A DNA stretch of 63,459 nucleotides, counting the filler, from Phoronis australis (taxonomy: Eukaryota > Animalia > Phoronida), in assembly GCA_002633005.1 (NCBI GenBank). It is 4 parts of 4 records of this genome, joined end to end, with 100 filler letters (N's around TTAATTAATTAA, not from the genome) between each part and the next. Parts side by side here need not be neighbours in the genome. Positions count along the whole stretch, not along the records: positions 1 to 30,394 come from NMRA01000575.1; 3 more parts are not named here. One strand, 5' to 3'. Both the position numbers and the translations under genes were made by a program. Shown in pieces: positions 40-34,427 of the stretch (positions within the stretch are counted from its first letter, which is position 1; each line of letters starts with the position of its first letter). The notes under the pieces are model-generated. The model did no database searches, was not told the origin of the DNA, and saw nothing but the letters and a program-made list of their open reading frames with translations.

Positions 40-990
40 TCAAACGCAATTAAAAAGGACTCTAATACTTTCAAACGCAGAACATCTTGCTCCACGTAGG
101 GAATTGACGTGTTTTCCACAATTTCTTGACGGGTGATTTTACGTGCGTGGCATTGCAGAAAATGATCTTGAATGTCGCCATTTTGAAGATGCATGGATAA
201 CCGACGGGAAAGACTGCAAACCGTTTGACCATATTAACATTCTTTGACGTTTGAACGAAGACATTCGTTCATAGGGCATACAAACTCTCTGTGCACCGGG
301 GCGGACTTTCGCATTAGAAATGTTATTTTTATGACCAAGTTGGAGGACTTCCTATTCCGATAATAAATAATAATATCGAGGCGATCGTCAGGCTTACAAA
401 CTTTAATATTGTCCCTTATAATTTTCTTAATGGCGTATTCGTCCTGGAGGTAATTATTAGACATGACATTTTTGTAGAATATCCTTTTGGTGACACCGGT
501 CCGACGTGCAGGGACTTCATAGCTAATTCTGGACACAAATCGCTTAATATGGAAATCCACCAAAGCATTGGTATACCCATTATTCACCAGTATTTCTTTA
601 TCCTCTTTAGGAAGTTGACCACAACGGCGACCACATACCGCACAGAGCACTCACTTTTGGCGTGGAGGCAGAAACCTTTATCAGTAGGCTTGTGGTAAAC
701 TGATGTAAAAAATTCAGATGGAGAATGCTGCACAAGAACGTCCAAAAACGGAATCTTGTCATTTACAGGAAGCTCGTGGGTAGGCTAAACTTCAATACAG
801 AGTGACGCTCAAGTTCATTACGTACTGATAACAAGTCATCAAAGGCACACTAAACAAAAATATCATCTACATAACGTACATAGATAGGAATACCACCAAT
901 CACATTGCTAGCCCTTTTTTCCACTTCAGACATATAAAATTCCGAGAAAGTGGGACCCAGAGGAGAGCCCATGCCCACACCATCTTTTTG
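40..990 (-). mobile_element. Penelope-like retroelement fragment (RT C-terminal half + GIY-YIG endonuclease), 5'-truncated and degenerate
   Basis: Minus strand reads QKDGVGMGSPLGPTFSEFYM...YVRYVDDIFV* (RT motifs, ~990-850), ILVNNGY...IIYYRNRKSSNLV (ORF 234..650) and YGQTVCSLSRRLSMHLQNG...RLKVLESFLI (GIY-YIG, ~235-45). Stops and frameshifts are present. It lies in an intron of the ankyrin-protease gene. Confidence 0.9.
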
Positions 991-1032
991 AAAAAAACGA
1001 CTACATCAGTCAATAACCATCGACGTACTTAC

Positions 1033-1281
1033 TGGGGACCTTATGATTCAGCAATGTGTATACATGATAGTTCGTCATCACGTACTTGGACCCGACTCGG
1101 AAGCCAGATCCCACCCCGCTTGCGTCTGACTTTGCGAGTAATACAACTGAAGATAATGCAGTGGTCAGAGACATGTGTAGATGAGCTGAAATGACGTTCT
1201 CGCCCCTGTCAGGGAATTTGCCCAAAAGACCTGACTGCTTCACGGGTACAATGAGAGGGAAATAATCTGAAAATGACAAAG
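1033..1281 (-). CDS. Exon 11: start of trypsin-like (FAM111-type) protease domain including the catalytic His motif
   Basis: SSVVLLAKSDASGVGSGFRVGSKYVMTNYHV. Phase-1 acceptor at 1282-1283 (alternative in-phase acceptor at 1267-1268); donor GTAAGT at 1032-1027. Confidence 0.8.
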
Positions 1282-4200
1282 CTGCATAGTAAGTAAAGTT
1301 CGATAAAGTGACAATTTATAACTGACTGTTAATGACCCAGACAGCGCCATCTTTAGACAGTTCTTTCTTTTTAACCTTTTTTTGCTCAGTATTTTCCTGA
1401 GAACAAAAATGATTTTTAGGTCTGTCTGGATGATTATGTTGTGTTTAGAATGTTAAACACACTGAACAGATGAGACGTAAAGTTTCCCCATAATAAAATT
1501 TAAAAGCACAACCTACATGTATAGGGACTACATTTCAGCTGATGGACGAATCCATAACCAGGGTTGCTAAATCCGTTAATTTAAAGGTAGTGTGAAAAAT
1601 ATAACTGTATTTCAAAATATCCACACTCAAAAATGTAATCGTTCAGATTTCGAGTGCCGAAAAAGAACCCAATTTCACAGAAGGTTGATGTTATTTCAAA
1701 TTCCAGCACTACAAAAAAATAATAATCAGGTACAACCAGTCACAAATGATAAGTTGGCGTACATGTGTAGGTTTATAAAGTCACAGGACAATCACTCAAG
1801 GTATGGTATACAGTGCAACTTAACATTACAAAATATATGCTCTAAGTTGAAAGAAACACAAAATTTGAATTGTTTGTTGTTTAGTTTTATATATCTATAT
1901 TTATTGTATGTTGCATTTTTGAACCAGTCATTGGTTGTAGACGTTGTCGCAAGCTAAGCACACCTTTCTCGAGGCAATATTAAATGTGTGATAAACGATT
2001 GCCACAAATAACTTGTCACAATGACATTTGTCTGCACAGTATGTCTAGTTGGAAGGGTGAATATCCTATTTCAAAAACACTACTGCAAATCACATGCTAA
2101 GTCACATAACATCTTATAAAGTCCAGTCGGTGACGTTTGCATGTACACGCGCATTTCTTGCAAAAAACACACTGGCAGTCATTCCAGTTTGATTTCGCCT
2201 GAAAATGTCTTTTCAATAAAAGTTTCATTTGGTATAAGTCTGTGTAAGCTCAAGTTTACACAGTGGGGGCTGCTACATGTAAAAGTCGTAATACAAAGTA
2301 CCCATCAGTTTGGGATCCACACTCAGAAGGTCCATCGTCCCGTCGTCATTACTCTTTACTCGTACGACCACGTCTACCACACCATCAGGTATGACTTGAC
2401 CCTGTGACTTTAAATAAGACTTCAGTGCCGCTAACAAAACGTTCTTTTCATCATCAACAGGCGTGGGATTTTCATCAGCGTCTACATCTGAGGTAGGTAG
2501 TTTTACGCTCTGACGCCTGGATCGCATGTGCATCTGCAGTTAAGAACGAATTTCAAATTAAAAATACAACTATTCACACAAAAGTATTACTACATTGACT
2601 CTGAAATGGTTTAAATATTACAGTTACCAACAATGCACTGAGAGAAAATTGACCCCGTACTCGCTTGAGCACAATGTATATTTATAACCAAGAAACACTT
2701 ATGCATCACATAGGAAAGAGTTGTTAGTCTTCTTATTCACCATATGTTGGTTTCACCAAATGACCCATGGTCAAGTCTAAACACATTTCTGTCCGGATTG
2801 AGATTCAAACAAGGTACTTTCCCTTACCGTGGACATTGCGTTCATGAAGACTCATATTTTTTTCTTAAGTGATACCATCGCGCTAACTTATATTAACATA
2901 CAACATTTTTGCATGAAAATATTATACTTGTAAGTATGCGTTTCCTTGCAACAAAGTATTGTATGCGAATACCATGTACGCAAAATTTGGAATCCAATGC
3001 AGATGAACATGAAAGTTCAACACAGTGTGCTACTTATGTATATTTAACATTAAGAGTTGTTGCGAGTAACACATTCACAATACATGACTTCTACATGTAG
3101 GTCATCATTTGGTGCGAGACACCTCAATCCAAGAGATGTGTGGCTTTCGGAGGATCAGACAATTAAAGACAACACTAATGCAATCCCATCCTATTCCTGA
3201 TATTGACACGCTGCTATGATATAAACCACGTAAACATCACTATTGCCATGGTAACTAGAATTATATTATTTTTCACCAACACATACCTCAAGGACTTTCT
3301 TTATTTTCTCGATAGTCTCATCCTCAACCTTGTTAAAAAACACGTGACATTCATTGCCACAGACATCGAGAGCTGTTTTATTATCCTGCAAAACAAAAAT
3401 ACAGAGCCCATCGTTCAGAGGAACATACGTCATGTGAATTTACGCACCACTATGTGTTAAACATCTACTATATCAAGCGCTTAACTTGTGTATTGTGGAC
3501 AAAACACTCCGGTCCGGATGCTTAGGCATAACGCTGCATGAGCAGTTTGTGTCAGTACTAGATTAGAGAAAAAACGGCGACTACAAAATGGAGATTCTGT
3601 TGGCCAAAATTTCTTCAATTATTGACTACTTTTAAAAAAAGTTCTCAAAATTTATCATGTTATTTAGAATGTCACCCGGCTGGTACATAAATGAGTAATT
3701 TGAATTCGTTGAAAATCACGTGTAAAAAGCCGCTTTTGTGTTTATGGTTAGTGTTAAGAGAAAAGTAAACAAGGACTTTGTCTGCAACTGTACTGTGCTG
3801 TTCCATTATACTAGGACCTACATGTGAATGTTTTGGTAATATATTCAACAAGCATTCAAACACTAATATCTACACATAAAATTATATTGCGATATCTAGT
3901 CTACAATTTGCTTTACCTATCAACTGACAAATGCCTTGCAGCGATGTTATTTAACGTTTGCCTCTAAAACAAAGATAGACATTGGTAAAATGCATTGACC
4001 TTGTCATCTTACCTCATTAAGAATTGTTGCATCAACATTATTTTGAACGAGAAGTTCCACAACTGCTAGCCGGCCATGCATAGACGCTTCGTGCAGGGGC
4101 GTATTGCCTCTCTACAATAAGTATTGAAGCTGAACACAATACACATTAGCACCATTTCAATTAGTGGTTGAACTGCTCGCGTAAATAAAAGCTAAGTGGT

Positions 4201-7200
4201 CTATTTTCAGTCAGATTAGCGAAAGAAATTGTCCGATATTTAATCAAGGACAAAATGAAGCAACTTTGATTTATTTTAATCAAGTCTAACGGATACTTTG
4301 TTGCTGTCAAGCAATTTTGGGTGTTAGAAGAGTGGTGTGACTCTCGATAAGGCAGGTGGAAAATGTACATGTATAGAAAGTAAACAAAATTGATACGCCA
4401 TATAATCTTATTCATTTTTAATAATCATAATGAATGATCCTAATCCTTGAGCCCACTGGGTGTGATCGTTATTTTTCAATGAACGTTAGTCATTTGCAGC
4501 TGGCACACCAGTGGCTTACGTAAACTATTTGGTACTTTTTTAAATTTTACAAACTGATTTCGCTAAAGCAGATGCTCGGTCTATATCATGTCAACTGAAT
4601 TTGGCCATTCTTCTGTCACAGTAGGAATAGCCTTCAGGTATCAATACCTGTGTTGCTGATCGAATACACAGTCAGATTGCCATTGACATTTATTCGACCG
4701 CTTAAGCATATGCTGTACATGCGTGTCATATATTTACTTGTCACATTGTAATGCACTTTACTTCTTTCGAGTAAACCAAGGAAATCGTAACCCACTGCAC
4801 AACATTACAAGTGCGTTCCGTGTTTAGGCACTTACGCCGTATATCGGAAATAAAGAAACTGAGGAAAATTTCCTTCTTAAGTGTTTCACATATACTTGTA
4901 GACGCATGCTTATGCCTTGCTTATAGGCACAGGTGGAAATCCGTTGTATATGTGCGCAGAATTATTTTTGTATACTTATGTAATTTTTTAAATCCACGAC
5001 TTTGCGCAACTTCGTGCACATAAGGTAAAAATGTATAAAACAGACACATTGGCTCACAAGGCAAATATTGGAATTGTGTACACTGTACATGTATAAGAAA
5101 ATCAGTAAAACTTTTGCTGACATGACAGTTATTGCCTCGGCTCTAAAGCAAGCTTCACTAAATTTCCGAATGGTGGCACCCGTCGACATCTAAGCACGAC
5201 TAATGTATGCAAAGTTGAACGGACTGGCACAAATAACATTACATAACTGAACAGGTTTGTGCGAATGATACTTTGGTGACAATTTCAGTGAAGATAGCTA
5301 GAAAAATTTGCAAAATACAAACCGAAAGAAACGATGAGGATATATTTCATTCACAAAAAAAAATTTCTAATCCAACGAACTTTGGTAGCTTTTCACTGAA
5401 TAATAAAGGCAATTTGAAACTATTGTTTATACTTATGAGAACATAAGATGTGGTCGAACAATAACATGTTGCCACCAATCACTAACATATCTTTAGTGAA
5501 CATGGAAGTAAATGTTCCGGAAATGGAGTCAGATTATGTACAAAGTTATAGCTATGTTGAAATTGAGGTCAGTATAAATTATACATGTAATGTATGTCAT
5601 GATCTAAAACTGAGGGAGCCTGGACAATCAGCACCAACGTTTATACAAATGTTTAGCGCTTAGATAAAGAGAACACAACACTTGAACATCAAAGCTAAGT
5701 CGGAATGTGTTTTCATTATTTTTTAAAGTTCTGTCTTGCTACACAATGTGATTTACATTGTTGTTTTATCTGTTTGACAACTGCGACATTGACACGTTTT
5801 TCAAAAATTACTTTCAAGACTGTTCGTTCGTTAACCATTCTCAGACGCTACGTAAACTGATGTGTCACCATCACAATAAATGAAACGATTCAAATGCACG
5901 CGTCTACTGCTGTGCGTTTCTTTCAAATAAGCTCAAATATTCCACACGTTCTAGCAATCGACCCTCTTTATAAAATTAGCGTTGTTTGTTTCGTGATTGG
6001 CACATTTTTAGAATCTTTTCACGAAATCTACACGACAAGTTTACCAAGTAATACCGCAAAAGTCCATTTTCGCACACGAAATTGTTTCACTTAATTCATG
6101 TCGGCTGTCTAATTCAATTCTTCCACAAAATGTAGATTTGCAAACGTTCACTTTATGGACAACATTGGCTGCGTTCTGAGAGTAATTTGCGTGAAAGTTG
6201 ATTTTTTCAGATGCCAATATTTAGAGTTTCCAACCAAATAAATTTCCGATACGTAAGGACTCACAACCATTTTGCGCACAGCGTGTTGGACATACACGGC
6301 GTGTGGAATTAACTTCTTAAACCGTCCATACTTTATGCATTGACTGGAACAATTCGGACTTTGCAGTCCAGGAGAGAAAAGAAAGACGTGCCATTTCTCT
6401 CCCGTGCGCCACAATGATTGATAAAGGATGTCCAACTTGGAATCCAGAAACTGCATCATGCTTTATTGAAGCGTTATATGACGGTTTCATCAAAAGACAA
6501 GCGTGGCCATTAGCGGGCAAACTAAGTTAGGTGCCGTAAAAATCCGTTATTGAGTAAATATGGGAGGAATAATAAATGGACGTCAAAGTCCATGTCAAAT
6601 GTCAATTACGTCTATTATATGGGCTACACTTTTATATTTCCGAATTTCAATGTTTTGTTTCACTAAAATGAATTTGAACGCGTGAGGAAAATACAGGCAC
6701 TATTGGCATGCGTATTAATCTGAGAAATGAATTTCTTCATCAACTGTAAAAAACGTCGACACTTAGGATTCCTGTAAACAAGAGACACTAAGGAGTCTGC
6801 GCTGTGAAAACTAACAAAATAACAATATTCATGACACGTAGTCAATGTCATTTAGTTCAGCTACTGAATAGTTGTCAGTATTAGAGAAGGAAAATTGAAA
6901 ACTTGATATAAAGCGGTAAATCTGGGTCTGCCAGAAAACGGGTGAGATAATCTTAGCAACAGAAAAAACGACCCGTTTAGTCGAACGAACATTACGAGTG
7001 TTGTAATGACCACAACAGCTCGAAACTTTTGTGTTTAGCCGACTAGAAATATATGAGCGCCTTTTTTTCTTTAGCAGAACTGAAAGTGAGGGCTATAGCC
7101 TGTAATGTGCCGGTTTTATCATGAGTCAGTAAACCTCAACATTTCCACGGTGTGCACTGCTGGAAAAACCAAAAAATACGAAAGTTGGCCACGATCAGTA

Positions 7201-10200
7201 TAACTGGTAATTGTACTGTACTCTATCGGCGACACAATGTATTGGATCATTTCCCAGCGCCAACTTTTCATTTTTTTAATGAATCACCGATATAGGCAAA
7301 TACTTTTACTATCTCTACTCAATAATGTAAAATATTCTGAGGCCACATGGCTTGAACATGTGATGAAAAAGTACAGTGGGTTGTTTAGTATGGGTTTGAA
7401 TGATAGATTACGAGCGCTAGACGACTCACCGTGGTGTGTTTGGCACCCAGTTATTAGTATTTTTACACTGTCTGCCCTACCGTGACATTTTTCACTTTTG
7501 GCATTTGCATTGTTTAGGTTAAGAGTGAGGCAAAATGATGTTAAGCTCAAGATGTGAAACAACATTTACACAAATGTATCTGCCTATGTCCAAAAAAAAA
7601 ACAAAATGATTCAAAAACGTATTCACTTTGGTCAACTAAATTCGCTGAATCAACTGCAACTGAGCAAATTCCTTGCGAAATTGTAAAATTCTAGGAAAGC
7701 AAGGGTTCCAAACGTTGGTTTTGTTTCTCGTTTTATTGATACAAAGATAACCGTTTTTGCTCTACTGAAGGCATGTTTTGTTAACTTCGGTAATAAATCT
7801 ATAATCTTATAAATACCATGTTTACCAGTAAAGTAAATTTCACCGACACATGTACTCCATCGAGACTCAAATACCGCTATCTTTTGTTTAAACAACAAGA
7901 CACAAATAATGGCATCAATCTGAACTTTTGAAACATAAAAATTACCATCTAAGTGATTTATTTGTCAATTTCATTTTTTTTTAGCGAAGCAGGCACACAT
8001 TCGTAATTAATCTATTTTTCTGCAAGATATCCCGGCATAAATTTGAATTCTTTCAGCTTGAAGTTGGCAAACTTAAATAATTGTGTTGATATTTTAAGGG
8101 TACAAAACGCGTCACTTATAACAAGCAGTCAGTATTTATCGCTTTGCTACTGCATGTGGCGATTATGAAGGGATTCCCAGAGCAAAATAGCCTGACATCA
8201 CTGGCTTGCACGAGAGGAACTTTAAAAAATAATGCATAGAGCAGAAATAGCAGTTTGAATAAAAATGGCTTTCACCAACACATTTCATGGAATATAAATA
8301 AATCAATGGCGCTTCGATTTAATAACTGAAACTAAATATGTACAGAAGTGGTTTTAAAGCAAGATGTAGGTCTTTTTGATGGAATAGTTTGTTGATAAAT
8401 GAACAAATCCTCAAACTCAGAGTACCGTTTGAGCACTACCGACAAAATTCTAAAATCAGTTCCGAACATCAGGTGTATTCATTCTCCAATGTGGAGGACC
8501 TCGAATAAGTTCCTACATCATTTTGAAGTTTCTGTTGTACATTTTAAAAGCAGTAACTGAGATATTTGAACTGGTTAATGTATGTTTGACACATGAAACT
8601 TTTGATAACGTGGCCACCAACACAAATCACGGCCAGACCTATTCAAGATGTTTCAAAGAGAAATCACGTACCTCAACACAAGCTCCGCATTGAAATGAGG
8701 AAATACATCCTCATAGCTTTAAAAGTTTCCGCAACTAAACAATAAAACTTGCTTACATAACAAAAAGACGAGAGATCAACGAGATGAAGTACGATGCCAT
8801 ATTTTTGAAACAAGCGAAGCAGACGACAGGTAAAAAACACGCTACTGTTTCCGACAACAAAATTCACGCAAAAATCGTAAACAAACCAGCTTCAATGTAT
8901 ACACAATTTAAAGCACCTGCACATGTATACACAGACTTTGAATTTACATGTATTGTGGATTACAGCTCGTTTACTAGATTCAGAGTGCTCGGCTTGGCAC
9001 CGTGATAAAAGGACTTGTGCTTTCGACGGACTGCCCGGGACTTTGCCTCAGTCACGCCCTAGATTTCAACTCCATAAAATGGTAAATCCGACCTTGGCAG
9101 GAACAAACACGGTTGTGTGGTGGGGTCGAAATACATGTACAGTTAAGTCATGGGGTTAGAACACATGGATAAATTGATTGCTAAATTATCGTTATATTAA
9201 AACTAAGCAAGACTAAAACCTTCCTAAACGCGCATCTGATTCCTTGCAGTGAACTGATTAAAAACCTGCATGTGTTATAATTAATGAAGCGAGGAAATCT
9301 GAACCTGTGGCTGTTGTCGACCATTGATGGCGCGTTCGGTCTGTTTTTATTTCTGCCAAATTAATACGATTAGACAAGCTGCTTTGAATCACTGAGTGAT
9401 CTGGGGAGGTGCATGGACTGAAGAAGAGATTCTTTGTAAGTAGGAGACAGATCATTTTTGACGAGATATTTATTACGAATGAATATATCCTCGAACTCAT
9501 AGTCCATTTTTTGCAGTCTTAACTAATCAAGAAGTACAACACTCTTGCAATACCTCGTTGACAGTATTGATGTCACATCCGCTTTCCATGCACAGTAGTT
9601 TCACTACTTCTGTATGTCCACCTGCAGATGCCGCATGCAGCGGTGTGTTACGCCACTACAGTAAGTGAACAAAAATAGATAATGTTGATCAGCATTATAC
9701 AGTAGTGATGTGGGTGGGTGAACAGGTCGAGTCTTATACTTTTCCAGTTCAAACTTCAACATCAGTTGCAATACTGATGAAGGGTGTGACTCAACAGGAC
9801 AGACCAAAACGTGATATTTAAACTCAGACATCACTTGCACGGGATTTTTTAAATGTTCCTTTGATCTGATGTAGTCACGTGATTGAAAAGAGTATTTTAA
9901 ATGTAACAACTTGATCTTATACATTACAACAGAGGGACATTCATTTAATGAGTGCTGTGGAAATGCAAGTAAAGAACCAAGTCACTGTGCAAGTCTAGGT
10001 GAACTAAAAACTGTTTATAATTAGTTAAAGTCGCGTGCACGTCACGTCACGTGCGGTGGAATGCAACAAAAATGTCAATGTTTAAAATGAAATCATAAAT
10101 CACAATTAATTAAATCATTGAATGATTCAGCCAAGTCACATGTTGTGGGTTCATCATCGTTGTGTAAACAACTAGTTCAACTAAACAACCTGTGTGTCAT

Positions 10201-13200
10201 TACTTACCTTATCACGTACATCTACACTGGCCTTGTTGGCCAACATCACCTTCGCTGCGTCTGTATGACCACGCTCTGCTGCCCTGTGCAGCGGTGTCCA
10301 GCCCGACTATGTAATATATAATGGAGATGTGTGAATGGACGATCAACGTTTAGAGCTAATTAACATACACTGGGGAAAGTGAACTTGTAAGGTGACATAA
10401 ATGAAACATTACTGACCCCTCTAAGACGCTAAAATACTTGTAATGATATCAAGAATCAACATGAGTGCTTCAGATTTTAAACGTGGCTGTAACAACAGAA
10501 CATGCTTTGGCCGTTCTACGCAACTTTGAGAGTTCACGAATGTAAAGCAGACGACTTTTAATTTGTCTTGCTTTTGAGACATTAAATTGCAAAAAAGATC
10601 AAGGAAATGTGTCCCTAAACATTTTAAACTATCCTTATGTAAACAACTAGTTCAACTAAACAACCTGTGTGTCATTACTTACCTCATCACGTACATCTAC
10701 ACTGGCCTTGTTGGCCAATAACACCTTCACTATGTCTGTATGACCATCCCATGCTGCCCAGTACAGCGGTGTCCAGCCCAACTATGTAATATATAATGGA
10801 GATGTGTGAATGGACGATCAACGTTTAGAGCTAATTAACATACACAGGGGAAAATGAACTTGTAAGGTGACATACATGAAACATTACTGACCCCTCTAAG
10901 ACGCTACAATACTTGTAATGATTTCAAGAATCAAGTGTTACACATTTTAAAACGTTGCAGGACATGTTACAACTCTACGCAGCTTTGGTTCTTCACCAAG
11001 AAAAGCAGACGACATTGAACTTGTCATTGTTTTTGGACAATAAATTGTGAAAAATATCAACAAAATGTGTTCCTAAACAGTTTTAATCATCGTGTTTGTT
11101 AACAACTAGTTCAACTAAACAACCTGTGTGTCATTACTTACCCCATCACGTACATCTACACTGGCCTTGTTGGCCAACAAATACTTCACCTGCAGCACGT
11201 TCACTGTGTCTGTACGATCACGCACCCGTGTCCAGCCCCCCTATGTAATATATAATGGAGATGTGTGAATGGACGATCAACGTTTAGAGCTAATTAACAT
11301 ACACGGGGGAAAGTGAACTTGTAAGGTGACATAAATGCAACATCACTGATCACTCTAAGACGCTACAATACTTGTAATGATTTCAAGAAGCAAGTGTTGC
11401 AGATTTTAAAACGTTGCTGTAACAACAGAACATGTTGTAGACGTCGACTGTAAGAAATTACAGAGTTCCTGCATAACTTGACAGCGATCCCGCCATGTTG
11501 TATTTCTTCACCGATTTTCTGGCTTAGTGTTTAATATAAATTTGTAATGTTGATTGGAAGATTGTCATTAAGAATAGAAAAGTATCAACGTTAAGTCCAC
11601 AAATATATTGTTGACACAATTCAAACCTCAATGTTTCTTAAGATGCATGTACAGGGTACAGATTGAAAAATATTTGTTGAAATCATGAGATATGAAAAGT
11701 GTATTTACACACAAAATATTTAGTTAAACTTCAGATAGTCTACTGTTTTTGTAACAAAGATAACATTGTCTTAATTCTAATGTCGTCTCAAGTAGTCTCT
11801 ATTACCTCGTCTTGCACGTCTACATCGGCCCCACCCTGCACCAGCACCCTCACCACCTCCGTCCTGCCCCTCCCTGCTGCCAGGTGAAGTGCAGTCTGGC
11901 GCTGCAGAAACAATGAACAAGTTATAGCAAACTTCACAATCAATAACTTCACTGTGAATCTTAATTACTCGTCATGCAAAGGTTGAAATACCACAATTGT
12001 ACACAGATTCTCTATTAATTTGATGTGAGTAAAAGATCTAATTAAATTATCTTTTGTTAGCCACCTGAACGGGTATTTTGCTAAAAACAATTTTTGACAC
12101 AAAAAACTATGTATTGGACACCAATGTTGAAGCTAAATGTGCTCTGTATGAAAGCAGCGATCACAAGGTTAAAATTTACGGGGCTGCCTGATATTCTTAG
12201 TATATCGACCATACCTGCTGGGTGCATCAATTGAGAAACACGGTGAAACTAAGTTATACGTCCAGTTTCACTTCTGCCTGAGGTCCAAAATAATTTCTAA
12301 CGGATGTGTGTCATTAACAAACAGGAATACAACTATGACATAACATCAATACATGAATAAAATGATATTGGAATAGGCAATCTTTGGTAGGCCTATATGG
12401 TGTTTTACTGGTTAGGAACAAATGCAGAGAGAACACATTCAACTTGTCAATGACATTGAACAAAGTGGTAACTGGTAAAACCTCCTAGAAAAGAATAAAC
12501 CCTTCTCTACAAATTAAGCACATTATGAAACACATTTTACCAAAACCATTCTTCTAGTAAGACTGATGGTCAATCAATCACGTGGTTCCCATTTTGCCAA
12601 AAATCCAAACGAATTGATGTGATGTTCTGAGTCTTCAGACGCCGAGACAGTGGCCTGGCCAAGCGAACTGCTGCTTTTAAAAAGAGCACTTTGCCGGCCA
12701 GTTTTCGCGTGTACACGCGATAAATTGATACATTCGCCTGTTCTTGAATATATTTAAAGGGGCATTTCCTTATCACAAGGAGCCAATTAAAGAGACTATG
12801 ACCATGAAAAATATCATGAAACGTACTGCATCTTGAGTTTTTTGACACTCGTTTGACATTGTAAATGCTGTGTTTTGGCATGGACACCATTTTCAAACTT
12901 GTATAAAAAGTTTGACATGATCAATGATTTACCTTATGCAACATTTTGTTTTTGAACGATCACGGCCTTTTTATGAAAAGCAAACAAGGAATACAAAAAG
13001 GTCAACATCAACATAAGCTGCCTCTTCTTGCCGACGGCCACTTGGACCCGACGGTTACAGACGTATAAATAACCCTAGGCATATTAATAGCCGAACGGCA
13101 GCCACGACTTGGGTTTCAGCAGACCAGTTTTGGACTGCAAACTATTGCAAAGTAGACGCAACATTTATTGGAACAAGCACCCAGTGCTCTACAAATCGCC

Positions 13201-16200
13201 ACCTTTAACTCGAGAACATCTTCAATAAGGCGCCAATAGTTATGGCAAATGTCCACCTGTCCTTTAACTCTCTAAAATTATTTTCAAAACTGCAAGACGT
13301 GTTTAAAAAGCGATAAACGGAGCAAAGTTTGGAGTCGCAGTGTTTTATGTTTGCAGTGGTCGTCCTTAGGATTAGGGTTTAGGGTTAGGGTTTAGGGTTA
13401 GGGTTTAGGGTTAGGGTTTAGGGTTAGGGTTTAAGGTTAAGGTTAGGGTTAGGAATAGGGTTCTCCTCTCATCCGTCTTGAAAAGACGTGGCAGTGGTCT
13501 GGCCAGGCGAAGCGTTGCTTTCAACCCCATTTAGAACGTCTGCACGTCAAACGAATGTCAAACAACTCAAATAGAACAATTATAGCTTAATGGTGATTGG
13601 CCATGGTCTCTTTAATTGGTTCATTGTGATAAGGAAATACCCCTTTAAATATTTTCAAGAACAGGCAAATGTATCAATTTATCGCGTGTACACGTGAAAA
13701 CTGTAGCCTACGGCAAAGCGCTATTTTTAGAGCAACGATTAGAATTTTCTATTTGAAGATAATCACCTTAGGGTGTTGTTTAAAAAGGGAAATGTTAAAA
13801 ATTTTGAATTCTCGAAGAATTTCATATGCAAAGGGACGATCATGATTGCTTTGATGACAAACAAACACGGAGTACACAAAATTCTACTTCTTGAACATAA
13901 GCCGCACTTTGATGTTACGCCACGACTAGCAGACGGACACTTGGATCACACGGTTAGTGAATAGACAAAATAAACAAAAATACGTACAGATGGAAAATAA
14001 TGCATAATAGAACATGGCACTCATACCTAAAATTATAAAAAATTGTTGAACCTTAAAACAACTGCCTGTTTGAAAAATATCTTCATGTAAATAAAGCCTT
14101 AAAATATCGTTTTTTTAGAAATCACCCAAGAAGTGCAATGCCTCAAGGGAACATCAATCCATCTATTAATAGAAGACAATCTGAAAATCTATAATTAGAC
14201 ATGCATTTGAACGTCAACACTGGGTGCGTTCTCGCGAATGGCCGAGACAAAATGTCGCCCCCCTTGTGATATCCTAGATCCGCTTATGTATTGAATTCAT
14301 TCTGGACACGTCACAAACGTACTACTGCACAGACCCAACTTTTCACGCCAGCTGAGATTTTGGCCACTCGTATCAAGTCGCAATATGCGACTTGGAATTT
14401 TCATCATAACCGTACTGAGTTTTTACATGTACACCTATTGGTTGAAACCTGGCAAATATGAATCAACTCATGAGGATCTGAACATAATTTTGTTGCAGCC
14501 AAATTAAGTTCAAAAGAACTCTAACGGAGAACAGCCCGATAAATGACTAGCAGTTGCAAACATACATGTACATGTATCGCGAAAAAATGAAATAATCCTG
14601 AAAGAGTTTTTGTTGAAATGTACTTTGGTTACTTTTTCAAATATTCGGATGCGCCGAAGAATATGCCAGACCACGTGATAAAACGTCACAAAACAGTGAC
14701 GTTTACGATAAAGTTACCAAACTTTGTCTTGGAAAAAACATGTAATTTTTTTTTTTTGAGGAAATTGTCCGGATTGTGAAATTATAATATCCCAGATCAT
14801 GGGCTACGCAGCACTGAGGAAAGTTAGGGTTATAGCCCCCAGACCCCCTATGGAGCACCGCCCGTAGTCCACGGGCACTGAAAACAGTGGGGGTACAGCC
14901 ACCCCTCAACCACTATGGTGCGACGCCCGTGCAGATAATAGATCCCATTGCGACACTGCTTGGTTTTGTTCTTTGTGCTCACGGTCGAGTCCCGGGAAGG
15001 GATCGTGATTCGGTAATGTTAAGTAACGGCCTGTTTGAACATGCGTCCTGTTTTTTCGCAAAAGACATAAAGCCAGTAAATTACAACCCTAGGTCCACTA
15101 ATAGGCAAACAACGCCTTTTTCAGCGGAAAAAGTTTTGATTTGCTACATATAACTATTGCAACTTATTTTTAAACAATCAGACATAAAGTTTTGAGCAAT
15201 CATTTTATTCTTCTATTCGCACACACCATGCCAGTTTTTTACTCCCCAGATAATCAGTCGACTATGTCATTGATTTTTAAAACTTGCTTGGGAAAAAATA
15301 CTGTTCCGAGTGAAACGTCAGCCAAAATGAGTTAATAATTTTGCGGGTGGCTAGAAAACACGTGGATGTTAACGAAATCGAAACATTCGCACCTTGGTGG
15401 CGTTGCATCATTTCTTGCTATTCCAGTCTTTTGATGTTTTAGCACGCAACCATTTGGTAAAAAAACTAAATTTGCGCCTTTTTTTAACTTTGAAACATTG
15501 TGTAACAAGCGCCCACTGGTCTATTATTCGCCACTGTTAACTTTTGACAAAATTCAATAAACCGCCAACAGCTGTAGCAAGCCCCACCATTAATTTCCCT
15601 CACTGAAATTCTTTTCAACACTGCAAGATGCGTTTAATATATTGTAACCGGACCAATGTTTTGAGTCGCAGTGTATTAAGTTTGTGGGGGTCCACGGAAA
15701 CATCGAATTCTGGAAGCTACTGCGTGGTATGAAGCTGTCATCTACGATGTCTATAGTCGGTCACACACTTATTATGCTTAAGAACAAATTCGTTTTTCAA
15801 AAGAATCCCTTCTTTTGTCAATATTTAAAAGCTAAGTCCCGGATTCGGTTGATTTCTCCGAAGGAGAAGTAACCCCTCCGACATGCATTTTGGGATCACG
15901 TGTCGTTTCTAGGCTAACATACATGTATATTCTGCAAAACTATATGGCACGTACAGTGTATCCGGTCACAAGGAGCAAACTCGAATTACACGGTTATGTG
16001 AAGCTGCTCGGATTGGATATTATGTCGAAGCTCCAACGGATTTCAATGGCGGTAGAGAAAAATGCAGTTGCACCAAACAGTAAGAACTCAATTACGCGAC
16101 CGGAAATTTGGGGATTACTTAACGTCGTAGGCAAAATCATAATCTCAGCATTTTCTTGACGGCCTTAAACTTAATTTGGCGCATTTGGTTAATTTCTTGC

Positions 16201-19200
16201 AACCTAAATTTCGTGACAACTTGATGGGATTTTGGCTAGGTCCCAAATTGCTGATATACATAAAACGAGTTATTATTAGTTTTGCCTTTGCCATGACCAA
16301 AATGTTAAGCACTGTCTAAAAATAAATTCCTTGGAAAAATGAATTTCGGAGAAATAGTCAACAAATCATAAAACAAGAGCAACGCAGAGGGTTGAAATGC
16401 GCCCACAATTGCACCGTATACGGTATCCTTCTAGGGTTGTTTATTGGTACCATAAAGTGGCCAGTAGAGGACATATATGTAGTATGTTGTACTTTGCAAA
16501 ATGGAAAGGCATGGACAAAATGTGAGTGATCTTCATAATACAAGCACATCCTATACATCAGTTGCTTAAAGCACCACAGAAACATAGAATTAAAAACAAA
16601 TTTACCAACATACGAGATTAGCACAGCATTAGAATGCCAGAAACAAATTTCTACTTGGAATTTTTCCTTCATAGTCACGAACTAACACAAAGTATACACC
16701 TGAAGACCTATGAAAATACAGAGGTCAATGTAAAATACTAAAATTGCCACTAGAGGCATACCGGTAGTCAGAATCATCCTAAAGTCGTCATCGTCCGTTG
16801 TCAACATCACATAAATATACTTGCTAAATTTAGTAAAGATCCTGCAAACGGTTTGGGAGATACAGCCATGGGCGCAAAAAAACAAAACTGCCACTAGGAG
16901 GCGCCACAGTAGTCCAAATCGTCTGAAAATCATTGTCAGCTGTCTTCCTTATAGTAAGCACATACACGCCAATTTTCACAATCATCCTTTGAGCGGTTTG
17001 GTTGATAGAGGGGTGGACGCAAAAATACAGACTCGAAAACAGTAAAAATGGCCACTAGGTGGCGCAAACTACGTCGAATCCATCTGAAAACAGTAGGATA
17101 GCGTCATCTCACTAATAGGTGCCTACATACCAAATTTCATGAAAATCCGTTCAATACTTTTGAAGATACAAAGGTAAGCGTAAAAAACTAAAATTGCCAC
17201 TAGGGGGCACACCGGTAGTCGGATCCGACCAAAAGTCGTCATCTTCCGTTGTTAACATCATATAAATATACTTACACAATTTGTAAAGATCCTGCGAACG
17301 GTTTAGGAGATACAGCCATAGGCGCAAAAAAACAAAACTGCCACTAGGAGGCGCCACGGTAGTCGAAATTGTCGGAAAATCATCTTCAACCGTGCTCTAC
17401 ATAGTAAGCATACATGTATACATTCCAATTTTCACAATCATCCTTTGAGCGGTTTGGTTGATAGAGGGGTGGACGCACAAAAACAGACTCGAAAACACTA
17501 AAAATGGCCACTAGGTGGCGCAAACTATGTCGAATCCATTTGAAAACGGGAGGATAGCGTCATCTCACTAATAGATGCCTACATACCAAATTTCATGAAA
17601 ATCCGTTCAGGACTTTTGAAGATACAAAGGTTAGCATAAAAAAATAAAATTGCCACTAGGCGGCACACTGGTAATCGGATCCGTCCGAAGGTTCGCACAT
17701 GCCTTCCCATTCATGAATGGAACAAATGTGCCAAATTTCATGAACATATGTCAAAGGGTTTTGGAGATAGAGCGGCGGACGCCGCACGCCGGACGCCGGA
17801 CGGACGCCGCCCGTACGGAGGGAGGGACGGACGGACGGAGATGACGGCATAATGCGTCCACATATAAATATGTGGGCGCATAACAAAAGCAAACAATAAG
17901 AAATGCTTCTGTTCATGTCATCCGCGTTTTGTAGTGTAGGTAATCAAAAGATTTGGTCAGTGGGGGTTAAAGTTTTCAGTATCCAATTACATATTAAAGG
18001 TTACATAAAAATGTGATAATGGTCATCTTCAATCTACCCATGTCATAGTCTTGAATGACAACTTCGTCGTGTGAACCAGAACAAAACATGTAACACCTTC
18101 TTCGCCTGTCCCCTGCTTAGATACTGCGAAAAAAGGCGAACCAACTTTGTCAGCTTAAATCAATACACCAAGTAGCAACATTTTGGACCGCTAGGGAATT
18201 GTTTTGTTAGTACTGCAAAGCTATAATGATATAACTCAACCATATTTTTCAAGTAGTTTGTAAAGTATATATCCAGAAAAAAATTCTTACTTCCCGCGTC
18301 AGGTCTTCATGTACATTGGGCACAACCTGTTTGATATCCGCATGGAGCTTGACAAAACAGACAAATTTATCAAAATTGGGGTTCAAGTCTGTGATGACCG
18401 AATGTACCAACTAAAACGATTACATTTACTGTATGCATATATTTATTAGCGCAACGATGAGTACACATGCGTTCTGGCCAACAGCCAGACCCGAACTGAC
18501 CACGAGGTCTCTAACAACTAGATGGAAGACACGCCCACTATATACTAAGATAGTTACCACAAAGTCAGAGTAATTTGCAGACACAAATGAGAGTGATGAC
18601 TTGACTGGACTGTCCAATCCTTCGAGATCAGTATATTGCCACAATTTGCATTGAATATTTTCAAATTTTATTCAGTTGCAAAATGATTTTTTCCTGAACA
18701 GTATCTGGAGTAAGATGTCCAAAGTGGGGCAAGTTCTGTGTACACTAATTAAAATCACGTCAAGACGGCACCCCGAAACTCGCAGAAACTACTTCCAAGA
18801 ATAACATATTCTTCGACAGGGTTGTATGGCGATGGTCCTAATGCCCGATATCTCTGATCACCGCATATTACTAAATTAGGAGACAATCTACAACCGCGGT
18901 TGACAGGAAAGAATTTAAAAATATACCATACTGCATGACAACATGCTGTGAATGTTCTAATAGTGTTTCAAATCACTTTCAGGTATTTTCAGCAAAGTTA
19001 GCAAAATAAAAGTTGAATCAATTGTTTCCGTCATAGATTAGAAACATCAGTCCAAGGATGTCTTGTTCAATAATATTGTGCATGGGGTCGTATAACATGT
19101 ATGGAAACAATTCTCCGATAAAGCCTCCCCCCAAAGAGCATCAGGACTGGTTCAGCAACAACACTTGAAAAACATACATCAAGCAAAAAGAGAAGTCTCT

Positions 19201-22200
19201 AATTTTTTTAGATTTTCACGAAATCGTTTTTTTTTAAATTCTTAGGGATAAGCTTAATTATAGTATGACTTTGTGATTCAGTGAGTCCACTGTTTAAGCT
19301 ATTCCGCAGTGCTACCTAACAAAAGCATCATGTGACTTTGGAACGACACTTGTCGATGGGAGTGGCTTCGCCCCTAACACACACCCTTGGCTACAGCCAC
19401 GATTCCGGCTCGCAGTGTTTAGTACATGAACACCCAGCCCACACCAGAAGTTTGTTGACACGGACAACTATGCACGCCCAAAAATTATTGGGTTGGGCAC
19501 AAATCATTTTTACTTCGCCGAACCACCCCCACCCTTCGCCACCACCTCTGCCACTCCCCCCTCTCCTACGTCTGCCCTAGGTGGGGGTCACAGTGGAGGA
19601 TTCAAGGGTGGCCATCGTCAATCTACCCAAGCCATAGTTGCAGAAATTTGCATTAAATATTTTCAAATTCTATTCAGTTGCAAAATGATTTTTTCCTGAA
19701 CAGTATCTGGGGTAATTAAGATGTTCAAAGTGGGGCAATTTACGTGTGCACTACATGCGCGCACCGAAGTGGGCTAAAAGGTCCACCCCAGAGAGACAGA
19801 AAGTCCGAGAAAACGAGGCATCAGTTCGTTAAACATTCGCAAAGGCGTATTTCACAATGGTGCTCCCGTTTTCTGTTTTTTTTTTTTTTTGTTTTTTTGA
19901 AGTCGGGCCACTTTTTTGTTACCAAGAGGTCCACAAAGTCAGGAACTCGAGCCCCCCATATTGAAGGCTGGGTGCGCGCATGTACTAGTTTACTAGTTTA
20001 ATTAACGTCCAGACAGCTCCCCCCTCCCCCCAGTGGAGCCCATGAGTTAACCACTGATTCAGCCTTATCGTAACAAGTAGCATCAGACGTGTCACATACA
20101 GATTTGCATAATTCTATGTATCCTGATTTTCGTCAATCATCAAAATCTGAGAATTAAAAATGTGTTTGTGATATGTTACATAGTGAATTCTGAGGTTGCA
20201 GCATGATAAATAATTTTGCTCAGTTGAGTGTCTGAACTGAGTCCTGTGCCCGCGGGTACTGCGAATGGCCAAATTACTTAAGTATGCAGAGCTTGTGTTT
20301 AAGTTTCAGCTTCTCATGGTTTACGGCAGTGGTAATACGTCTGCTGTCTGTGAGTGGAAAATGGCCGAGCATTCGGTTATTTTGTTTTGTATTAAAATTT
20401 TGAAAGTTGTTTCGACCGGCCGAAATGATGTTTTTGTTCAAAAGTCGACTCACTTTTGCCAAAGGTTTGCCTAAATATCCGTTAATGGTTCCATTCAAGA
20501 ACAGCACTGTCCGTGGCCTGGCATACAAACAAGTATATCGGTATAGAGTATCTTTGTTTGATACAAATGATGTTATCACCCTGAGTCGAATTACCAGGGC
20601 CCGGTCTCCAATCTTTTTACTCGAAATGGAACCCGAAATTAGGTTTGGCATTTTCTACTCTACTTTTGGGCGAACTCAAGATAAGTGTCTATTATTCTAT
20701 GCTCGAGTACACAATAACTTACGTAGATAATGTATTGCCCTTAGTTCACAGTTTTTAAGCCCAATATTAAAGCTATAAGTTCGAGTTTGAACTCGAAATT
20801 TCGAGTTTTTTCTCGAGTTTGTAGCACGAATATAAGGGTCTTCAAGGGCAAACTTGAACTAGAAACTCCTATGCATAAACTATAATGTATTCGAGCACAG
20901 TCTGATAACCAATTATCTTAAATTAGCACAAAAGGAGCAAAGAAATTGCCAAAAACAGTTTCGAGTTCGTTTCGAGTTCGTTTCGAGTACAAGATTAGAG
21001 ACCGGGCCCAGTTGTGTAAACAAACTGCAGACTCTACAAGGGCAGGTCACCAGTGCAATTTCTCCTAACCTCCATTGGAGGGCGCCAGCATGCGTGTGAC
21101 GTCAGTGGACAAAAGGGTCTTGGACAACATTCACCATTCTGTATTAGGATGGCCCTGATTCCTTATATCACTGCTCACAGCATATCACCAAAATATGGAT
21201 ACATTCCACAAAAGCGGTTGATCGGAAAGAATTAAAATATATACCTTGCTGCATGACAACATGCTTTGAGCTTTCTAACAGTGCTTAAAATCACTGTCAG
21301 GTATTTTTAGCAAATTTAGCAAAATAAAAGATGAATCATTTGTTTCCGTTATTGATTATAAACATAAGTCCAAAGCTATCCTGTTCAATAATATTGTGCA
21401 TGGTGTCATATAAAATGTATGTAAACAATTCTCCGATAAAGCCTCCCGCGAATTGGAATCAGAACTGGTTCAGCAACAACACTTGAAAAACATGCATCAA
21501 GCAAAAGGAGATGTCTCCAATTTTTTAGCTGTTCAAGAAATCGAGGCTTTTCTTCTAAGGGATAAGCCTATTTCATAGCACGAATTTTTGATTCAGTGAG
21601 TCCTCTAACCTAGTTCGCAGTATTCCCTAACAAAAGTATCAAATTTTTCAGAAAACATTGCATTGGAAATCTATCGGAACTGGCAGGTTTTTCGCATTTC
21701 ACGTTTTTCAAGATACCAGTTACATCTTTCACAATTAATTCTAGTTCAATTTTTGCTAACATCATGTATCTTTGGAACGAAATTTGCGAATGGGAACTCT
21801 TCGCAACCAACACACGCCCTTGGCTACGGCCATAATTCTGGCTCGCAGTTATTAGTACGTGTACGCCCACCGCATACCAGAACTTGTTGAGACGGACAAC
21901 ATAAATTGATCAGCAGGATCACATAAATCCATGAAGTCGTTTTTTCAAGCTATGGCAAACTTCAACTAAACATTATGCAAAGAATTCAACTTGTTTATAG
22001 AACAAAAACAAGGCATGTATCTAAACTACACGGTCACGGACGTAAAAACACGACCCACGTACCTGCAAACACCGTTCACTGACTCGCAAACATGGGATTG
22101 GACTCACAAAACATGATCCAAAAACAGCATCTGGTATGCTGAAGACCGCTAAACAGGATCTAAACTTTTTAATCCCGACGCCTTACCGATCCTGCCACCT

Positions 22201-30612: not shown

Positions 30613-32342
30613 AGTAGGCTTTATGTCGTTCATTGGCATTGAACGTGACAAGAGGAACAGATCACAAACATAAACACTTTCTTCTAGAATGGTCCTCAGA
30701 GTTACATCAAAACGTGTCATGTGTTGAGGAGCAGATGGCAGACATGAACACATTGTTCTAGAATGATCCTCATAAGAGTTATAGCACAACGTATCATGTT
30801 TTGAGGAACAGATGGCAGACATGAACACTTTGTACTACAGTGGTCCTTGGCATAACATGTTAACTCTGAAGTATAGAAACTGAAACAAATTCTGATAATT
30901 AAGCTTAATTTATTATAAATTACTGAGGAGTTCTACTCATTATAGGTAAATTACAGATTAGAATTATTACCTTAAGAAGATTTCTTGAAAATTAACAATG
31001 AATATAGAGTTTAATCCAAGACTGTTGGTTACCAGATTCTTCATTTATTATTGTATTATTATGCATGGTTCACAGCAAAATTATGTGAATTTTTTTTGTC
31101 ATGTAATTCAAGTCCAGGTTTACACGTCAAAGTGCAGAACTGTTGAATATAGCGCTGATGCAGTGCCAATAGTCAGTCATGTCTTCTAAATGCCCAAGAT
31201 GCATTTTCAAATTTTGATGTGGTTATTTTAAACGTATTACACTTCATCCTATGCAAATATCAAGAAAATTGACCTAGGCGTGTAGTTTGCAGTAGAATAG
31301 TTCACGAGCTCTACAAACTGATATAAAAATCGTCATTGTAGATTGAATATTTTCGAGATAAGAGCTTTTTGAAGTTGCAAACTTTGTGCCATGAATCACT
31401 TAGGTGGAGCTGTATAAACCTTGCTCTGTTTAATCATTCCACCATCTTGGAAGAGAATCAGTGCCATGATGGATATTCTTTTCAAAAGTTGATGTACATT
31501 AATCCTGTTTACATATCTCTGTTGTGTGTTTTAGCTGTTTTGTTCAAATTCTTTTTTGTAGAAATGAGTGAGGATCTCGTACAGTGCTATAGGAAGCCTC
31601 GCCTTCTCTGTCACTCTGGTGGCCATTTTATTCCAACTTCGTCTGTTCACAAGAAAGTGTACACGGAGTTTCTGGAAGACATGTTGAAAGAAAAAAAGTT
31701 TGGAGGAAAAACATGATGTCTGTGGAACTTGACTTTTAGAACTCTCCTACTTTGGCTGATACGAAAGTCATGTGCTGCAGCTTTTTAAATTCAAAATCTA
31801 CTGTTTATGGTGTTATTTTTCTAAGAAGAAATGGTAATCGCTGATAATTTTAGAGTCACTTAGGCATTCATACTTTCAGTTAATGTTCCTCTCGCTCATA
31901 GTATTGATAAAGGTATGTAAACAGCCAAGCAAAATACCCACATTGTATTTCTGCTTTCACTTCTACTGGGTGAATGTAATTTTTGTATTACCAACTTCAG
32001 TAGGTTGGACTCAGTCTGTGCCTGGGGAACAATGAATTGACTTGCTCTCCAATGCTAAACTGAGACAGGTATGGTAACAAAGGTTCACTCACAATTACAT
32101 AATCTTTCATACTACAACCTGGCTTTTTATGTGGTAGTCCTGCTTTTCATTCCAGTTATCCCGTATTTTCATTCTCAAATGTTTACAACTATGCAGCAGG
32201 TATTCAAAATAACATCATCATAAATAGTGTTAATATTTTCCATAGTCCACTTTCTTTAGGAACAAAACAATCATAAAAATGTGTTCCAATGTGTCTTGTT
32301 TACCTTACTGCATACTGCATGCCAGTGTATCAGGATTATTAA

Positions 32343-34310
32343 TTATGCGCCCACATATTTGTCTGGGCGATCGGCGTCCGTGGCTGTATCTCCTAAACCT
32401 CTTGCAGGATCTTGTTAAAATTTGGTAAGTGTGTTCCTATGGGGTTGACGACAAAGGGCAAGGAGTTTCGGACTGACCTGAGTACTGCTGGGCCCTCTAG
32501 TGGCAATTTCATTTTTTTACGTCTACCTCTCTATCTTCAAAGGTTGAACCGATTTTCATGAAATTTGGCACATAGACATCTATTATTGAAGTGATGCTAT
32601 CCTTACGTTTTCGGGTGGATTCGAGGTATTTTTCACCATCTAGTGGCCATTTTTAGTATTTTCGAGTCCGTTTTTTGGCATTTGCCCCTTTGTCTACCAA
32701 ACCACTCTAAGGATGATTGCGAAAATCGGCATGTATGTTCTTACTTTGAAGAGGACTGTTGACGATGATTTTCCGACAACTTTGACTACTGTGGCACCTC
32801 CTAGTGGCAGTTTTGTTTGTTTTTGCGCCCATAGCTGTATCTCCTAAAGGCTGTACAAGTCAGAATCTTTATTAAANATGTTTACAACTATGCAGCAGGT
32901 ATTCAAAATAACATCATCATAAATAGTGTTAATATTTTCCATAGTCCACTTTCTTTAGGAACAAAACAATCATAAAAATGTGTTCCAATGTGTCTTGTTT
33001 ACCTTACTGCACACTGCATGCCAGTGTATCAGGATTATGATGCACCCACATATTTGTCTGGGCGTTCGGCATCCGTGGCTGTATCTCCTAAACCTCTTGC
33101 AGGATCTTGTTAAAATTTGGTAAGTGTGTTCCTATGGGGTTGACGACAGAGGGCGACGAGTTTCGGACTGACCTGAGTACTGCTGGGCCCTCTAGTGGCA
33201 ATTTCAGTTTTTTACGTCTACCTCTGTATCTTTAAAGGTCCTCAACCGATTTTCATGAAATTTGGCACATAGACATCTATTATTGAAGTGAAGCTATCCT
33301 TACGTTTTCGGGTGGATTCGAGGTATTTTTTACCATCTAGTGGCCATTTTTAGTATTTTCGAGTCCGTTTTTTGGCATTTGCCCCTCTGTCTACCAAACC
33401 ACTGTAAGGATGATTGCGAAAATCGTCATGTATGTTCTTACTTTGAAGAGGACTGTTGACGATGATTTTCCGACAACTTTGACTACTGTGGCACCTCCTA
33501 GTGGCAGTTTTGTTTGTTTTTGCGTCCATAGCTGTATCTCCTAAAGGCTGTACAAGTCAGAATCTTTATTAAACGCAGCAAATGTGTTTATAAGAAGTTG
33601 ACAATGGATAACGACGAGTTTTGGACGGACCCGACTACCGCTGTGCTCCCTAGTGGCAATTTTAGTTTTTTACCTCTGGCTCTGTAACTTCAAAGGCCCT
33701 CACCGATTTTCATAAAATTTGGCACATAGGCATGTATTAATGAGACTACATTATTCTTTTGTTGGATTTCAGGTATTTTGCGCCATCTAGTGACCATCAT
33801 AATTTTACCATTTTCGAGTTGGTTTTTCAACGTTTGCCCCTCTATCAACCAAACGATTCTAACGATGATTGTGAAAATTGGCATGTATGTTCCTATTATG
33901 AAGAGGACGGTTGCCGATGATTTTCCGACGACTTTGGCTACTGTGGTGCCTCCTAGTGGCACTTTTGTGCCCATGGCTGTATTTCCTAAACGGTTTGCAG
34001 AATCTTTTCTAAATTTAGAAAGTGTATTTATATGAAGCTAACATAACAATGACGACTTTCAGGCGGATCCAATGAACAGTGAGCCCCTTGTGGCAGTTTC
34101 ATTTTGTCTGTTTTCTTTTGTTTCTCTGAAGTTCCCTGACGGATTTCTATGAAATTTAGTGTATAGCTTTCTCAATGGTACGTTCCCGTTTTCGGATGGA
34201 TTGTATGTTTTTGCGCCATCTAGTGGCCATTTTTATGACAAATAAACAACCCTGAAAGCTCACCATTTGCGATGCATTCGTGGGTGCATTTCAACGTTCG
34301 CCTTGCTCTC
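32343..34310 (+). mobile_element. Helentron-associated element of the same family as 16372-17883 (its first ~530 bp appear twice because of an assembly overlap)
   Basis: Starts ttatgcgcccacatatt, has ~150-bp subunits with CTAGTGGC motifs, and ends gtgggtgcatttcaacgttcgccttgctct, matching the other copy's end. Confidence 0.78.
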
Positions 34311-34427
34311 TGAATACATTTTCAAGCCGAGCTCAAGAACAGATGTTTGTTTATCATTTTTTAAGTGTCAGAAGACATTTATCTACAAGTTTTGGATAGG
34401 TGAGTAGGCGGTTATTAGTTTATCAAT

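Follow-up and report, generated by a model that had tools for sequence, protein, structure and literature searches.

The window analysed here is a stretch of 63,459 nucleotides (nt) from Phoronis australis (assembly GCA_002633005.1; GC content ~39%), made of four parts joined end to end, the first of which (positions 1 to 30,394) comes from NMRA01000575.1. On the minus strand of this part lies an ankyrin gene, of which nine exons are known, in the order D, C, B, A, E, F, G, H and J (Table 1). All nine have open frames, intact GT/AG ends and compatible phases. Within the gene, a unit of 459-475 nt occurs three times in tandem (10156-11417), each time carrying one exon: A, B or C. All three are members of an expressed family in which the cassettes of exon and intron are nearly identical. 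The family varies mostly at the predicted binding face of the repeat, probably through conversion or crossover between cassettes and selection on what would be a recognition protein.

Exons A, B, D, E and F score 37.7, 40.7, 38.6, 38.7 and 33.9 bits against PF00023, above its gathering score of 21.1, and a local ankyrin profile found no ankyrin repeats in the window beyond exons A to F. The F-G, G-H and H-J joints are confirmed by RNA on the expected strand, in contigs that are 0-3 letters away from the window. Inspection of 11800-19000 by eye did not reveal the first exon, and the transcript continues past exon J. A Pfam scan gave no match to NACHT, NB-ARC or ROC-COR among the nine known exons; the gene extends past both known ends.

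As read directly from the window, a cassette consists of an acceptor flank of ~150 nt, one 99-nt phase-0 repeat and a donor flank of ~45 nt. The 64 nt adjacent to the acceptor are identical in A, B and C, where an earlier note on this locus had claimed ~60 nt, and the same is true of the 41 nt adjacent to the donor. From 100% at the exon edge, identity falls to ~83% in mid-intron, with indels (28 mismatches in 167 aligned columns), and the intron of C is a mosaic, A-like in some patches and B-like in others. In DNA contigs, exons of other sequence are surrounded by the same flanks. Another helix-2 subtype, the second one, has its 5' half and its donor end in common with the A-type exon. The gradient, the mosaic and the flanks found around other exons support the homogenised introns and the recombination between units that the earlier note had proposed. 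Its "recent" triplication is doubtful, because the distal introns differ by 17% and by indels. The gradient and the mosaic would fit older or mosaic copies, kept alike near the exon by conversion, better than a single recent triplication.

Two intact ankyrin copies and one damaged copy make up the locus. Of the three ankyrin exons first described, A and B are intact repeats, whereas exon C is broken and has no Pfam or NCBIfam match; the local ankyrin profile matches its helix-2/loop half only. With neither a TPLH-type motif nor helix 1, exon C falls outside the ankyrin repeats. Codons 5-16 of C agree with A at 26 of 36 nt after a shift of 15 nt, against 11 of 36 in register. Five helix 1 codons are lost and five helix 2 codons are doubled (or the stretch was replaced out of register), while the length stays at 99 nt. 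To judge from this alignment, a single out-of-register exchange would account for the retained length.

Between exons A and B there are 13 nt differences, spread over nine of 33 codons, with the residue pairs S/L, H/Y, R/W, E/W, R/D, A/I, A/V, M/L and K/E, and protein identity is 73% (24/33). No codon differs only silently, and all these counts agree with those reported before. In this sense, the divergence is indeed purely non-synonymous; at codon 21 (M/L), however, one mutational path includes a silent step, which leaves zero or one synonymous difference (Sd 0-1). By the Nei-Gojobori method (NG86), Sd is 0.5 and Nd 12.5, for S of 22.5 and N of 76.5. The neutral probability of so few silent steps is 0.035 with none and 0.17 with one through codon 21 (0.04-0.07 in simulation).

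The classic variable positions of designed ankyrin repeat proteins (DARPins) reportedly are those of Binz et al. 2003. The seven face codons used here are the union of these positions with the ones randomised in the designed ANK-N5C library, namely positions 2, 3, 5, 10, 13 and 33 (PMC4308713). In our own mapping, the latter correspond to exon codons 33, 1, 3, 8, 11 and 31. Five of the nine changed codons fall on the seven face codons (P 0.009), the same number that had been assigned to the binding face from the sequence alone; the six classic DARPin positions hold four (P 0.034). Three of the nine changes lie at framework positions. Two of these, at codons 17 and 18, are almost confined to A, with a non-A base in 89-100% of the read-set sequence, and look like private mutations outside the variable face.

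Of nine public runs listed, six were compared with the window, and reads from four of them allow the variation to be followed across the family. Reads at least 80% alike were placed on a test unit of 211 nt around A (10165-10375), and variants reaching at least 10% were counted. The sequences placed were 226 contigs of run X1, 91 contigs of X4, 471 reads of X6 and 592 reads of X8. Run X4, tagged "DNA?", has spliced joints and was treated as RNA; only X1 behaves as DNA. Sites 10254 and 10258, at which A stands nearly alone, were excluded; both are framework first or second positions, so they lie outside the face test. The pooled counts rest on the 40 variant rows listed out of 53, 36 of them exonic and four intronic.

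The pattern seen in these reads is concentrated on the face. Codons 1, 3, 8, 11, 12 and 33 carry 22 of the 36 listed exonic rows (binomial P 2e-7 against 7/33 codons), face codon 31 has no variant among the listed rows, and some variation is seen at framework codons 7, 17, 20, 21 and 32. First and second codon positions account for 31 of the 36. By run, 9, 10, 10 and 9 of the 14 first and second positions of the face are variable, against 1, 1, 1 and 2 of the 26 third positions of the framework (Fisher P 1e-5 to 3e-4). In the worst case, with the unlisted rows (2, 6, 9 and 2) all placed at framework third positions, P would be 0.001, 0.008, 0.048 and 0.003. Variable and constant codons alternate every 1-3 codons. 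The diversification of the binding face, first read from A and B, is therefore backed by the family-wide reads and not by that pair, whose evidence is marginal.

At site 10305, all four bases occur in DNA run X1, each base other than the reference being carried by 12-25 contigs. Since this exceeds the two alleles of one exon, several loci contribute to the variants, and on a rough reading the cassettes number in the dozens. Over the acceptor-adjacent flank at 10309-10348, the summed depth of DNA contigs exceeds the exon's ~4-15 times; although depth does not give copy number, the value suggests that this flank lies in front of more kinds of exon than those mapping at 80%.

RNA reads on 900-13300 are mostly 85-95% alike, which points to paralogues or divergent alleles, and those 99% alike are few (19/1301, 10/1208 and 20/1857). 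A-type exons are spliced head to tail, with tandem copies within the same read. Twelve of 27 such junctions are listed and were decoded by hand: all twelve are in frame, their beta-turn residues differ, and one turn is two codons shorter. A D-like exon is spliced straight to an intact A-type exon in RNA, and 4, 6 and 34 unspliced reads skip one 459-nt unit, alleles and paralogues being indistinguishable among them. The skipped unit and the D-to-A joint may reflect variation in repeat number, or paralogues. Exon E-like sequences also occur head to tail, in 18 and 16 reads, which indicates that exon E is duplicated in other family members. The ankyrin introns at 9180-12900 are well covered by stranded RNA in three runs, a sign of much unspliced or intron-retaining RNA throughout the family.

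Table 1. Features of the ankyrin gene and its cassettes in the Phoronis australis window.
Feature	Position	Strand	Description
Exon A	10208-10306	-	99 nt, phase 0, AG/GT ends; intact 33-residue ankyrin repeat; Pfam Ank E 1.9e-9
Exon B	10683-10781	-	99 nt, phase 0, AG/GT ends; intact 33-residue ankyrin repeat; Pfam Ank E 2.1e-10; 87% DNA identity to A
Exon C	11142-11240	-	99 nt, open, splice sites intact; broken repeat
Acceptor-side flank of A	10307-10460	-	homogenised intron, ~150 nt; copies at 10782-10934 (97%) and 11241-11393 (95%)
Donor-side flank of A	10160-10207	-	homogenised intron; copies at ~10635-10682 and ~11094-11141
Distal B-A intron	10461-10634	-	~17% divergence, plus indels, against the corresponding stretch of the C-B intron
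Exon D	11806-11901	-	upstream ankyrin repeat, 96 nt, outside the homogenised cassette; Pfam Ank E 1e-9
Exon E	9554-9655	-	ankyrin repeat, 102 nt; Pfam Ank E 9e-10; RNA depth
Exon F	4013-4111	-	ankyrin repeat, 99 nt; Pfam Ank E 3.1e-8; spliced to G in one contig
Exon G	3287-3385	-	likely C-terminal capping repeat; no Pfam match; spliced to F and H in RNA
Exon H	2302-2533	-	linker, 232 nt, fold not assigned; G-H and H-J joints in RNA; no Pfam match
Exon J	1033-1266	-	putative first part of a protease domain, trypsin-like (PA clan); H-J joint in RNA

The array of A, B and C may itself be a decaying member of the family, a degenerate allele or a pseudogene, while the pattern of the family as a whole is real. 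This is compatible with a diversified binding face and has perhaps a modest chance of being correct. Exon C has lost helix 1 and kept its splice sites, A carries rare framework changes at codons 17-18, the reads 99% alike are few, and the gene's 5' end was not located. Decay is harder to reconcile with nine exons that are open with intact GT/AG ends, and with spliced contigs that match F, G, H and J with 0-3 differences.

Relaxed constraint combined with conversion, without positive selection, would explain the family differently: old duplicated units would be homogenised close to the exon, changes at the face would just be tolerated, and silent variants would be lacking by chance or as an effect of the filter. 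Several points weigh against selection for a varied face, and a number of them speak for this alternative. The A/B pair alone is marginal evidence for selection (neutral P 0.035-0.17). The comparison of exon with intron, which the earlier note had called for, came out both ways: between A and B, divergence in the exon exceeds that in the near flanks (13/99 vs. 5/195 differences, P 0.001, for a boundary picked after inspection), but it does not exceed that of the intron taken whole (35/351, P 0.36) or of its distal part (28/167, P 0.49). The broken exon C and the private framework changes of A suggest slack selection at the locus. Among the listed rows, 3 of 36 are silent (pooled P 0.023), a value that becomes 0.18 if three of the 13 unlisted rows are silent. 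The read columns are unphased, mix alleles and paralogues and are classed on the codons of A; the 80% likeness filter favours the conserved scaffold; and the four runs, all drawn from a single family, do not amount to independent tests. The expression of copy A is not established either, its private base at codon 18 being present in 4/266 and 3/135 reads and in none of X4. Relaxed constraint, however, cannot raise the variation of the face above that of framework third positions and flanks, an excess present in all four runs, the worst case included. The variable and constant codons are moreover interleaved, unlike a patch that escapes conversion. We consider this explanation unlikely.

A mutator or a templated process could also have diversified the face codons in a targeted or somatic manner, as in the assembly of the lamprey variable lymphocyte receptors (VLRs). 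The variation is sharply focused, many junction variants occur in RNA, and C resembles an out-of-register templated replacement. On the other hand, base changes are of all kinds with no dominant type, and no docking-like complement to the flanks longer than 11 nt was found within 1000-20000. Common variants are present in DNA run X1 and recur in three RNA sets; because of this, they are germline variants and no somatic mechanism is needed. The targeted variation that the earlier note had offered beside diversifying selection is thus superfluous, and we regard this possibility as very improbable.

An assembly artefact, with haplotypes or paralogues joined in tandem, is the least probable of these explanations. 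Duplicates 95-99% identical do flank a single N elsewhere in the window (at 32877, 42456 and 42980), no contig spanning A-B-C was seen, and DNA reads were compared on unit A only. Positions 1-30394, on the contrary, contain no N, the units are 7-17% apart with indels and distinct junctions, and tandem A-type exons occur in spliced reads. Mutually exclusive exons of the Dscam type, an array with docking/selector pairing and one alternative exon per transcript, are excluded by the tandem A-type exons in one read and by the lack of a flank complement longer than 11 nt within 1000-20000.

At the other end of the gene, exon J quite plausibly starts a candidate trypsin-like protease, which is a lead taken from resemblance to profiles. 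It ends in a GSGF...TNxHV-like stretch, and only the first strand region and the candidate catalytic His lie within the window, in which the remainder of the putative protease domain after J was not found. Four models of the trypsin-like PA clan weakly resemble exon J, with scores far under cut-off: Trypsin_2 (PF13365) matches over profile positions 1-18, a partial domain (E 0.061, 14.5 bits vs. a cut-off of 27.6), and on the same stretch the MarP, DegP/HtrA and HtrA models reach E values of 0.03-0.11 (NCBIfam, 11.9-13.3 bits). The case for a protease is weakened by scores under every cut-off, by the lack of a true homologue of exon J and by a single-sequence model that is all-helical (predicted template modelling score, pTM, 0.30; unreliable). 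None of 95 candidates among longer proteins was a homologue of exon J. Two matches among 1.84 billion representatives were repeat-inflated and judged spurious, and four matches in the PDB, all with E >1, are attributed to chance. The NCBIfam matches of exon H (12-13 bits vs. cut-offs of 175-204) are at chance level as well. FAM111A/B are further proteases of the trypsin-like kind, but no search supports a link of exon J with them. When exon B was read into its intron, two of three candidates were generic ankyrin proteins with 44-48% identity.

The intron after exon J contains broken reverse-transcriptase and endonuclease-like frames (150-850, minus strand), which resemble a Penelope-like retroelement; the one frame scanned had no Pfam match. 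A 97-nt array of the TTAGGG type (13366-13462) lies between 106-nt inverted arms, 92% complementary, within 12699-13703; the whole has the appearance of a non-autonomous element with interstitial telomere repeats inside it. A family of ~456-nt tandem repeats is present at 16703-17683 and 32342-34841, in opposite orientation and ~80% alike. The duplicates at single N span 32179-33543 and 41932-42979 and are likely haplotype overlaps at scaffold gaps, that is, assembly artefacts. On the plus strand, an intronless open reading frame (ORF) of 589 codons (36590-38362) begins with a hydrophobic N-terminus and ends in an acidic tail. It contains sushi (CCP) repeats rich in cysteine (Pfam Sushi E 5e-13), followed by a likely membrane span, and is predicted to encode a single-exon type I membrane protein. 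A fragment at 60161-60625 (minus strand) has no Pfam match; we take it to resemble the end of ORF2 of a long interspersed nuclear element (LINE).

If selection on a recognition protein and exchange between cassettes shape the family, gene conversion and unequal crossover through the conserved flanks would homogenise introns, scaffold and silent sites, and diversifying or balancing selection would retain new residues at the binding face. The phase-0 symmetry would let the number of repeats change freely, and copy C would have arisen as a side effect of exchange out of register. Encoded in the germline, the proteins would form a set of intracellular binders of varied specificity. A bolder version is possible, though we put it forward tentatively: a natural germline DARPin library, with dozens of interchangeable cassettes exchanged within and between genes and selected for new binding faces, would provide the sensing part of ankyrin-protease receptors for pathogens or non-self, a family not described so far. 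The ankyrin array might be the sensor, and a C-terminal trypsin-like protease might be aimed or activated by ligand binding. A role in immunity or allorecognition (self/non-self) is conceivable.

If this holds, there is an animal family with ankyrin exon cassettes in which the intron flanks act as an exchange handle, perhaps with a protease in place of a nucleotide-binding oligomerization domain (NOD) or a kinase. A class would thereby be added to the candidate immune or allorecognition receptors of invertebrates. In fungi and brown algae, recognition genes are characterised by concerted evolution together with a hypervariable face, a combination that is reportedly rare in animal repeat proteins. 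In the literature, screened by title and the start of the abstract, no description was found of an animal ankyrin exon-cassette family or of an ankyrin and trypsin-like sensor, which does not prove novelty.

The closest parallel is formed by the fungal NOD-like receptors (NLRs), whose ANK, TPR and WD40 repeats of high internal conservation (HIC) are near-identical with a few hypervariable concave-face positions, in the inner helix and the beta-hairpin, as in the Podospora HNWD family and, for ANK, Pa_3_8560 (PMC4986451, PMC13449251). The ANK repeats of these NLRs are polymorphic in number, and their concave face is under positive selection (PMC4986451). For HIC repeats, the proposed cause is concerted evolution, driven by unequal crossover and by exchange among paralogues (PMC4986451, PMC13449251). 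In metazoans, HIC repeats make up 0.8% of the ANK/TPR/WD repeats (PMC4986451). The Phoronis family shares the regime, with its hypervariable positions on the concave binding face (22 of the 36 listed rows on six face codons). It differs from the fungal NLRs in that each repeat is an exon of its own and the homogenised unit includes intron flanks. Moreover, the gene has few repeats of the conserved type, no NACHT or NB-ARC seen in nine exons, and a candidate protease as neighbour. The HIC threshold of Dyrka (>85% identity over at least 100 residues) lies above the 73% protein identity of A and B, with two intact copies at the locus.

Brown algae offer a second comparison. Their NB-ARC-TPR genes are said to have one repeat per exon. 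In the ROCO genes with leucine-rich repeats (LRRs), each repeat likewise occupies one exon, exons are duplicated, lost or inactivated, and positive selection acts on the ligand face (PMC3341825). There, these genes are presented as candidate immune receptors without a proven ligand (PMC3341825). Common to both organisms are symmetric exons that hold a single repeat each and are spliced in tandem and in frame, and inactivated copies, here C. The Phoronis repeat is an ankyrin and not an LRR or TPR, no ROC-COR or NB-ARC was seen, and inverted intronic exons are lacking here; homogenised intron flanks are seen here and are not mentioned in the available part of the brown-algal account (PMC3341825). 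The family thus appears to resemble both the fungal HIC and the brown-algal receptors. It is filed as a member of neither, because no NOD or ROC-COR domain was seen and the locus stays below the HIC threshold.

With DARPins and ANK-N5C, the cassettes share a constant scaffold of 33 residues and variable beta-turn and helix-1 positions (PMC4308713, PMC8229355). The Phoronis cassettes differ in being natural, germline and split by introns; codon 31 is constant among the listed variants, and some framework codons vary. If the proposed explanation is correct, such differences would reveal which ankyrin positions are varied by natural selection, as compared with those that engineers randomise.

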